This document shows, one piece after another, positions 11,930 to 13,006 of a DNA stretch of 32,000 nucleotides. Every line of letters begins with the position of its first letter. Within the stretch, counting starts at the first letter, position 1. The position numbers were made by a program, and so were the translations under genes. Under the pieces are notes generated by a model. The model saw only the letters and a program-made list of their open reading frames with translations. It did no database searches and had not been told where the DNA came from. The stretch spans positions 4,459,516 through 4,491,515 of the forward strand of contig NZ_CP011492.1 in the NCBI RefSeq assembly GCF_001011035.1, read 5' to 3'. Origin of the DNA: Streptomyces sp. CNQ-509 (GTDB lineage: Bacteria > Actinomycetota > Actinomycetes > Streptomycetales > Streptomycetaceae).

Positions 11930-13006
11930 TCAGCCGATAGCGTCAACCGGACACTGCTGTACACAGGCAAAGCAGCTCAGGCAGTCGTCCGGCGCGAGCA
12001 GCGTGGCCATCTGGTTGTCGTCCTTGAGGGACAAAGCCCCCTTGGGGCAGACCTTCACGCAGATGTCGCAGCCGGCGATGCACGTATCCTCGTCAACCAC
12101 CGGGAGGAATCCCGGTGGCGCCAGGGTCGCCGGATACAGGAAGCACAGCAGTTGCTGTTTGCAGACATCGGTCGGCGACCAACTGGGAAAGTCCAGCCCG
12201 ATCAGCACACCCATCAGCGCGAGGGACACTCCCCAGAACACGGTGGCGAACAGCCCGTCGGCAGCCGCCCAGGCCCCCGCGGCGCCGCCCGCGCCGAGCA
12301 GCCCGCCCAGCGGCAGCGCCTGCGGCAGCCCCGGCGCGAGCGGAAGCCGGGGGTAGGCCAGCGCGAACAGCACCGACAACAGGTAGGACAGGCCGAGGAT
12401 GAGCAGCCCGGCCTTCCAGCCGGCGACCAGCGCGCCCGGAATACCCAGCAGTCCCGCCGGCCACAGCCCAGCGCCCACGCCCATCTCCACGCGGCGGCGC
12501 ACCGGGAATTCGACCACGTCGGCGACCAGCCGGGGGAAGCTCTCATCAAGCCAGGCGGGCAGATCGTCGATCTCGATCGGGCCGAACACCACTCGCCAGC
12601 CGGTGCGGCTGCGTACCTCTTTCGGGTCGACGCCGGGGGCGGCGAGCCGGGGCAGCACCAGCCGGTGATGGTCCACCAACTTGTCGATGCCACTGAGCTT
12701 GATCGCCGCCTCGACCTCGTCCACCCCGAAGTGCCCGCCCGCCGAAGCGCACCAGACGTTGACCCCTCCGGTCGGCGCGACCAGCAGGTAGCAGTCAAGA
12801 CCCATGCGCTCCAGCACCTGGGAGACCTGCCGGACCGTATGGTCGAAGTTGCAGGTCACAAACACCGGAGAGGAATGGTCCGGCGTGCCGAACACCCGCA
12901 GCCCCGGCTCGGTCGGGAACGGAACCGACCGGAAGATCAACTGGGCCGCACCCCGTAATGCCCCGGAAGTCCCTGTCTTGGTCACGGCTGTGGTTGGAGC
13001 CGCCAT
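11930..13006 (-). CDS. HgcAB-like fusion: HgcA-type corrinoid-binding domain + transmembrane domain + C-terminal 2x[4Fe-4S] ferredoxin
   Basis: ATG at 13006 with GGAGGA 7 nt upstream. The N-terminal domain contains GGVNVWCASAGGHFG (compare the HgcA cap-helix signature N(V/I)WCA(A/G)GK). The hydrophobic middle region has about 4-5 predicted helices (GLWPAGLLGIPGALVAGW, LLILGLSYLLSVLFALAY, LPLGGLLGAGGAAGAWAAA, FWGVSLALMGVLIGL). The C-terminus carries CIAGCDICVKVCP and CLSCFACVQQCP. Confidence 0.7.
   Translation of the reverse strand: MAAPTTAVTKTGTSGALRGAAQLIFRSVPFPTEPGLRVFGTPDHSSPVFVTCNFDHTVRQVSQVLERMGLDCYLLVAPTGGVNVWCASAGGHFGVDEVEAAIKLSGIDKLVDHHRLVLPRLAAPGVDPKEVRSRTGWRVVFGPIEIDDLPAWLDESFPRLVADVVEFPVRRRVEMGVGAGLWPAGLLGIPGALVAGWKAGLLILGLSYLLSVLFALAYPRLPLAPGLPQALPLGGLLGAGGAAGAWAAADGLFATVFWGVSLALMGVLIGLDFPSWSPTDVCKQQLLCFLYPATLAPPGFLPVVDEDTCIAGCDICVKVCPKGALSLKDDNQMATLLAPDDCLSCFACVQQCPVDAIG

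Follow-up and report, generated by a model that had tools for sequence, protein, structure and literature searches.

The open reading frame (ORF) at 11930..13006 (-) in a 32,000-nucleotide stretch of the Streptomyces sp. CNQ-509 genome (contig NZ_CP011492.1, positions 4,459,516 to 4,491,515; hereafter the window) encodes a 358 aa protein that is a genuine HgcA-type corrinoid domain fused, via four transmembrane helices, to a dicluster ferredoxin of the 2x[4Fe-4S] type. The protein is the CNQ-509 member of an HgcAB-like fusion family that is already catalogued and published, and what is new here is the context of the fused family, namely its partnership with the methyltransferase CpaM, the metal cassette that surrounds it in actinobacteria and the linkage of that cassette to mercury (mer) genes. 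The fusion protein and CpaM are proposed to form a relay that carries a methyl group from S-adenosylmethionine (SAM) to cobalamin and on to an acceptor, which in the actinomycetes would be a thiophilic metal or metalloid with mercury as the leading candidate, a reading to which we assign a probability of about 0.55.

That the protein is already known follows from an identical NCBI record ("HgcAB-like fusion protein [Streptomyces sp. CNQ-509]", 100% identity), from the curated family NF043039 and from its appearance in print, as a geothermal-spring preprint names the CNQ-509 fusion protein and uses it as a tree outgroup. The fused family itself was described by Podar et al. 2015 (PMC4646819), and it is absent from the text of Haft's selenoprotein preprint. 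The ORF starts with an ATG at 13006 preceded by GGGAGGA at 13014-13020, in a window with a G+C content of ~69%. The NCBIfam model NF043039 ("HgcAB-like fusion protein") covers residues 20-357 of 358 and scores 306.3 bits against a cutoff of 285, lower than the 320-400 bits of typical family members, and the same membership is indicated by the one-chain architecture, the NVWC cap helix, the upstream CpaM and the grouping in the tree. Pfam places CdhD at residues 28-152 (E=3.5e-19) and Fer4 at 302-357 of the one ORF, and four Fer4-type dicluster models, among them Fer4_10 and Fer4_7, exceed their thresholds, which bears out the original prediction, made from the letters of this DNA, that a ferredoxin is fused in cis. 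The model of true HgcA (HgcA_corrinoid, NF040863) gives 131.9 bits on the fusion protein, below its cutoff of 275, compared with 438-476 bits on four true HgcAs, and the HgcB model gives 118-134 bits on the tested true pairs. The gamma-subunit model of the corrinoid iron-sulfur protein (CFeSP), PRK04165, gives 92.3 bits against a cutoff of 306 and matches with its positions 321-446 only. A full-library search returned 106 representatives at E<=1e-30; in it the actinobacterial clade collapses to one cluster at 50% identity, with the next relatives at 41-44% identity, and no homologue of the fusion protein was found in a search of the plasmid collection. The ratio of non-synonymous to synonymous substitution rates (dN/dS) of the fusion gene is 0.16-0.25 against five orthologues, which shows that the gene is under purifying selection.

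An AlphaFold2 model of the fusion protein, built on a 113-sequence alignment, has a predicted local distance difference test (pLDDT) score of 92.9 and a predicted template modelling (pTM) score of 0.89, and in it residues 35-155 form a Rossmann-like domain, four long helices lie within residues 169-276 and the remaining part is a small ferredoxin domain. Its top Foldseek match in the PDB is the published integrative model of HgcAB (9a0b_A, E=2e-10), followed by the CFeSP large subunits, which superpose with a root-mean-square deviation of 1.6-1.8 Å over ~128 columns. The four helices (H169-195, H197-220, H227-247 and H251-276) are concordant with hydropathy and provide the topology that the original prediction had left to a structural model, with a transmembrane region of residues ~169-276 encoded at 12179..12502 (-). 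A fortuitous match of the NVWCA motif within an unrelated fold is contradicted by the CdhD match and by the superposition on CFeSP, which together place the homology far above chance. In a neighbour-joining tree of the corrinoid domain (125 columns; 30 fused-type, 8 true HgcA and 2 CFeSP sequences) the protein falls into an actinobacterial subclade within the fused group with 99.5% bipartition support, outside the true-HgcA clade (98.5%) and outside CFeSP (99.5%), so that a placement among ordinary CFeSP proteins fails as well; the monophyly of the whole fused group is weakly supported in this small tree, at 51%.

The cap-helix motif GGVNVWCASAGGHFG occupies residues 80-94 (12725..12769, (-)) and contains Cys86 (12749-12751), the predicted lower axial ligand of cobalt. 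MAFFT and HMMER alignments to HgcA and CFeSP run without gaps across the cap helix and put Cys86 in one column with the true-HgcA Cys and the Thr of "SVLTAY" in the CFeSP cap helix, and N83, V84, W85 and C86 are invariant across 113 full-length homologues. The Cys and the NVWCA core are therefore kept, as had been proposed, and the Lys of the HgcA signature is indeed absent, with a Gly at +4 in its place. The extra Ser that had been read as an insertion, on the other hand, was rejected. Eight bona fide HgcA sequences read G[IV]NVWCAAGKGTF[GS]T and the fusion protein reads NVWCASAGGHF, the two are equally long with the Phe at +7 from the Cys in both, and since their alignment is ungapped the differences are substitutions, namely A to S at +2, G to A at +3, K to G at +4 and T to H at +6. 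Ser at +2 is in itself an accepted variant of true HgcA, as in NVWCASGK (PMC10087281). The altered signature that the original prediction singled out does differ from true HgcA, as the NVWCASAG of the fusion protein departs from the motif N[V/I]WC[A/S][A/G/S]GK by a Gly for the Lys, but it is not a novelty, since the pattern NVWC[AS][AS]xGG is typical among the 113 homologues and is the norm of the fused family. Within that pattern the actinobacterial clade reads CA[SA]AGGHF and the majority of the distant fused proteins read CAAKGGNF.

The dicluster ferredoxin domain (11936..12103, (-); Pfam Fer4_10 and Fer4_7) carries one atypical and one canonical cluster motif, as first described: CIAGCDICVKVCP at residues 309-321 with the spacing CX3CX2CX3CP (12044-12082), and CLSCFACVQQCP at residues 342-353 with the spacing CX2CX2CX3CP (11948-11983). 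The CX3C of the first motif is a one-residue insertion found in the closest clade (P0001-P0036) only. The chain ends ...CPVDAIG, five residues past the second CP, and lacks a C-terminal vicinal Cys pair (CC), in agreement with the original prediction; none of 120 retrieved homologues has a CC in the last 15 residues, whereas the tails of true HgcB read ..ECC or ..SCC. The protein accordingly differs from a separate HgcB ferredoxin with a C-terminal Cys pair in both respects, the ferredoxin being fused and devoid of the CC. The linker from the last transmembrane helix to the ferredoxin domain carries a clade-specific CX5C (C282 and C288; 12143..12163, (-)), which is present in 42/42 actinobacterial homologues and in 0/73 others. 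At the other end of the gene, codon 17 is a TTA (Leu17; 12956..12958, (-)), as had been noted, and it is the sole TTA in the operon. Two orthologues (L087 and L089) have a single TTA each at codon 228 of the fusion gene and six others have none, and a conserved regulatory role of the codon was rejected because its position differs among the orthologues.

An obligate SAM-methyltransferase partner, at times in the same chain, is the defining feature of the fused family. In the window this partner is CpaM, a class-I SAM-dependent methyltransferase encoded at 12982..13671 (-) that scores 249.5 bits (cutoff 180) with NCBIfam NF043040, "corrinoid protein-associated methyltransferase CpaM"; the gene shares 25 nt with the fusion gene, an overlap that is also present in orthologues. 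The conservation of the partnership was followed in the non-redundant loci among L001-L086, which comprise 75 fused-type and 8 bona fide hgcA-hgcB loci; the matches listed from a contig scan are distant relatives only (<=40% identity) and include no actinobacterial genomes. A same-strand CpaM homologue lies upstream in 75/75 of the fused-type loci listed, in 72 of them within 300 nt, and in 0/8 of the true hgcAB loci listed. Unbiased clustering of the neighbours found no widely conserved partner apart from CpaM among the loci listed, and a literature search for "CpaM" returned unrelated acronyms only.

CpaM and the HgcAB-like protein also occur as single polypeptides with both NCBIfam models above cutoff (L029, P0126, P0129, P0131, P0156 and P0165). 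These fusions are 582-635 aa long, and the one in L029 stems from a Desulfobacteraceae metagenome-assembled genome (MAG; 152-1927). An N-terminal extension of the CpaM-fusion kind is present in ~16 of the best 150 representatives; in P0152 it matches the C-terminal half of CpaM only, and P0133, P0160 and P0178 (468-501 aa) have an extension of ~145 residues without a family hit. Some of the extended HgcAB-like proteins may stem from triple fusions whose gene calls are truncated. A Thermoanaerobaculales MAG (L011, 607-5566) contains two tandem pairs of CpaM and HgcAB-like genes.

Because the contig-scan matches listed included no actinobacterial genomes, the actinobacterial contexts beyond the window were gathered by exact-protein look-ups. 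Eleven independent ones were compared, namely the window, eight metagenome contigs, Lentzea flaviverrucosa (L001) and one Micromonosporaceae MAG. In 10/11 of these contexts, across genera, the small membrane protein is followed by CpaM, the fusion protein and the P1B-ATPase in that order. In the context L090 a Tn7-like module at 1216-9831 (TniQ, TniB, an rve transposase and two integrases) stands in place of the membrane-protein and CpaM genes, and the Tn7-like insertion has cut the fusion gene to 308 aa. The small membrane protein (148 aa; 13686..14132, (-)) is the first ORF of the operon, has no Pfam or NCBIfam hit and carries an N-terminal vicinal Cys pair, C11 and C12, where the original prediction had located it. 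This CC is present in 6/6 orthologues after upstream extension of L088 and L089. The further suggestion that parts of HgcB may have been redistributed over the operon finds some support in this conservation and in that of the linker CX5C.

The P1B-type heavy-metal ATPase of the cassette (9883..11865, (-); TIGR01525, 525 bits) is devoid of an N-terminal metal-binding (HMA) domain, and its motifs "VITPCAF" in transmembrane helix (TM) 4 and "HAASFISVV.NS" in TM6 are conserved in 10/10 actinobacterial orthologues. TM4 reads TPC where CPC or SPC is usual, and TM6 reads HAAS; the nearest structures are those of CopA, that is, of Cu(I) pumps. The ATPase is followed in 7/11 actinobacterial contexts by a DUF169 protein, in the window at 9109..9816 (-) (Pfam PF02596). 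Its family-invariant residues C65, which lies in an NCPxG motif, C92 and C164 are retained even in a relative of 18% identity, and a PDB sequence search found no related solved structure. An iterative hidden Markov model of DUF169 matched, among the 86 loci listed, the actinobacterial loci and L005/L006 only, and DUF169 was for this reason rejected as a family-wide partner. A divergent GntR-family regulator (14361..15341, (+); Pfam GntR) is encoded in 7/11 actinobacterial contexts, with orthologues at that position annotated as GntR plus YmtS_Ross in precomputed Pfam assignments; no inverted repeat that could be a candidate operator was found in the region between this gene and the operon.

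In the window the cassette adjoins a mer cluster at 5755..8854, which consists of merB (5755-6399, (-); Pfam MerB and HTH_15), a MerR-family gene (6507-6923, (-); MerR_1), merA, whose product ends in ...LSCCA (6940-8379, (-); Pyr_redox_2 and the dimerisation domain), and a gene for an ArsR-type regulator (8477-8854, (+); HTH_5). Mer genes, that is, merB and usually merA, are found within 10 kb in 5/11 actinobacterial contexts (the window, L001, L087, L091 and L092). In L091 merB (13133-13825) directly follows the P1B-ATPase in the usual slot of DUF169, which may point to related roles of DUF169 and MerB. The distant fused loci listed have sporadic ArsR, ACR3 plus ArsC or P1B-ATPase genes nearby. 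In L008 a distant CpaM/HgcAB-like pair is closely followed on its downstream side by genes for an ACR3-type arsenite carrier and an ArsC-like phosphatase (4282-5927), and ArsR-type genes are located upstream in L007 and in L084, the latter a true hgcA locus.

The mer/HgcAB-like region is flanked by a DDE transposase (3633-4580, (-)) and a MobA/VirD2-type relaxase-like ORF (26361-28652, (-)), which suggests an integrated mobile island, and in Lentzea (L001) a TraG/type IV secretion system coupling protein is encoded nearby. The window also contains two paralogous giant ORFs at 16283-20554 (-) and 21101-25516 (-), of 1423 and 1471 aa, both of which combine a trypsin-like protease at the N-terminus with an nSTAND1 NTPase domain and contain two TTA codons each; they resemble STAND proteins of defence or signalling.

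In the proposed relay the fusion protein would act as a membrane-anchored corrinoid protein in which Cys86 ligates the cobalt from below, while its fused C-terminal 2x[4Fe-4S] domain would serve as a built-in reductant that takes Co(II) to Co(I). CpaM, translationally coupled to it, would bind SAM and load the methyl group onto Co(I) to yield CH3-Co(III), from which the methyl group would pass to the acceptor at the membrane face. In purified HgcAB the methyl donor is SAM and the intermediate a Me-Co(III) species ligated by a Cys thiolate (PMC11588087), and the simplest reading is therefore that CpaM brings SAM to the corrinoid. The acceptor would most likely be a thiophilic metal or metalloid because the cassette carries the CC membrane protein, the TPC ATPase and the mer linkage; the gene neighbours of the Nitrospina HgcA-like genes and the sporadic metal genes at distant fused loci also count in favour of a link to metals. 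Such an acceptor could be handled by the thiol pairs and pumped by the P1B-ATPase, probably in the direction of efflux. The actinomycete cassette as a whole, with its CC membrane protein, TPC P1B-ATPase and usually DUF169, would be under the control of the GntR regulator, and it is repeatedly joined to merA/merB.

Several observations weigh against the relay as drawn, or against mercury as its acceptor. HgcAB is sensitive to O2 and the host lives aerobically, and an adjacent MerB would reverse the methylation of mercury. Mer genes were not seen within reach in 6/11 of the actinobacterial contexts and most of the distant fused loci listed have no metal genes nearby; the first Fe-S motif of the fusion protein has a non-canonical spacing, and an Rfam search of the window found neither a cobalamin riboswitch nor any other family. 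CpaM could instead methylate the final substrate, and its role as corrinoid loader is only inferred because true HgcAB draws on SAM with no separate methyltransferase involved. Pyrococcus furiosus made no methylmercury (PMC4646819), nor did Methanococcoides methylutens, which completes the pair of cultured fused carriers tested (PMC4646819, PMC10087281), and later protocols urge caution with fused sequences as the tested carriers have never methylated mercury (PMC10087281). Our confidence in the SAM-to-cobalamin-to-acceptor relay is moderate, given the adjacent MerB and the aerobic host. A more specific version is offered tentatively and at a low probability: the actinomycete CpaM/HgcAB-like cassette might be an O2-compatible SAM/cobalamin accessory of the mer system that alkylates mercury species, as in a conversion of Hg(II) or methylmercury to the volatile dimethylmercury, or another soft metal, with handover by the CC and CX5C thiols and transport by the TPC ATPase.

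A functional mercury methylase, in the sense of a divergent true HgcA and HgcB in one chain that forms methylmercury in an aerobic actinomycete, would agree with the retained cap-helix Cys, transmembrane domain and dicluster ferredoxin, with a SAM-dependent partner compatible with the SAM chemistry of HgcAB and with the adjacent mer genes in 5/11 contexts. It appears rather unlikely, however, as the HgcA_corrinoid score is far from that of the true HgcAs, the motif is without the GK of N[VI]WC[AS][AGS]GK, counterparts are lacking both for C73 of HgcB and for its C-terminal CC, which are crucial by mutagenesis, the tested carriers of the family make no methylmercury and a neighbouring MerB would render the process futile. 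Some other cobalamin or redox task in metal handling is conceivable though not probable, for instance the dealkylation of organometals together with MerB, a reductive reaction, or the trafficking of cobalt or corrinoids with the ATPase, with CpaM acting on a different substrate. The merB gene can take the DUF169 slot, the TPC signature of the ATPase is uncharacterised, no member of the fused family has an assigned function, and a corrinoid together with two [4Fe-4S] clusters also fits reductive dehalogenases; yet no dehalogenase-like domain was detected with Pfam and NCBIfam, methyl chemistry is indicated by the strict linkage to a SAM methyltransferase and the recurrent physical fusion with it, and in HgcA it is the Cys-on cap helix that is associated with methyl transfer to mercury.

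The two remaining explanations concern whether the protein is an HgcA-type protein at all and whether it is functional. An ordinary CFeSP large subunit of the acetyl-CoA pathway, or a fortuitous NVWCA match, is practically negligible as an identity: although Pfam assigns the N-terminal domain to CdhD and the best matches with an experimental structure are CFeSP chains, the similarity is limited to the C-terminal ~125-residue domain of CFeSP, PRK04165 reaches 92 of the 306 bits required, a Cys replaces the CFeSP Thr, a transmembrane domain and a fused ferredoxin are present, genes for CODH/ACS, AcsD and MeTr were not found among the window genes and the bipartition excludes the protein at 99.5%, so that score, architecture, context and tree all refute it. 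It is likewise very improbable that the gene is a decaying, non-functional relic on a mobile island. The transposase, relaxase and mer genes of the island, the orthologue truncated by the Tn7-like insertion in L090 and an NF043039 score just above the cutoff would be in line with decay, but the dN/dS values against the five orthologues, the intact state of all family-invariant residues and a five-gene order kept across genera argue against it. The methyl relay with a thiophilic acceptor is retained as the preferred reading.

Fused HgcAB-like sequences turn up regularly in surveys of mercury-methylation genes and are set aside for want of an assigned function. The obligate partner, the metal-efflux cassette and the mer linkage together give this orphan family a hypothesis that can be tested, and Streptomyces sp. 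CNQ-509 is a cultured aerobe from a genus that is generally amenable to genetics. Should the cassette act on mercury, "hgcA-like" hits in oxic environments would have to be read differently, and the entire fused HgcAB family would gain its first assigned function if the cassette proved to be an accessory arm of the mer system.

Among the known systems the closest is the fused family itself, represented by Pyrococcus furiosus (Q8U2U9), Methanococcoides methylutens and Kosmotoga pacifica, with which the CNQ-509 protein shares the single chain of corrinoid domain, NVWC motif, transmembrane region and ferredoxin, the upstream CpaM, the absence of a C-terminal CC and a score above the family cutoff. 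Compared with its typical members the actinobacterial clade forms a tight and divergent edge, with CASAGGH in place of CAAKGGN, a CX5C linker, the CX3C first Fe-S motif that is confined to the closest clade, the added cassette of CC membrane protein, TPC ATPase, DUF169 and GntR, aerobic hosts and the mer linkage. HgcA and HgcB of Pseudodesulfovibrio mercurii ND132 (NF040863 and NF040864) have a homologous corrinoid domain with the cap-helix Cys in the same position, likewise a transmembrane domain and a two-cluster ferredoxin partner, and a SAM-based methyl supply like theirs is plausible for the fusion. The true hgcAB are, however, two genes rather than one, GKGT changes to AGGH after CA[AS], the CNQ-509 protein is without C73 and the C-terminal CC of HgcB and falls short of the HgcA cutoff, and the separate SAM methyltransferase that is obligatory in the fused family accompanies 0/8 of the true hgcAB loci listed.

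A further parallel is seen in the HgcA-like genes of Nitrospina, near which MerR, a UbiE-type methyltransferase and DUF169 are reported to be encoded (Villar et al., bioRxiv 10.1101/648329) and which Lin et al. assign to one large clade together with the fused proteins. A methyltransferase, a DUF169 protein and a mercury-type regulator are likewise found in the CNQ-509 context, whereas the Nitrospina proteins come from marine microaerophiles and are reported without hgcB, and linkage to a P1B-ATPase or to merA/merB is not described for them. The CFeSP large subunit (AcsC/CdhE; PDB 4djd_C and 2h9a_A) is the fourth system compared: its Rossmann-like corrinoid domain superposes on that of the fusion protein with the cap helix in the same place, but it has an N-terminal [4Fe-4S] domain, a TIM barrel, a Thr for the Cys and no membrane domain, and its partners in the Wood-Ljungdahl pathway are MeTr and ACS.

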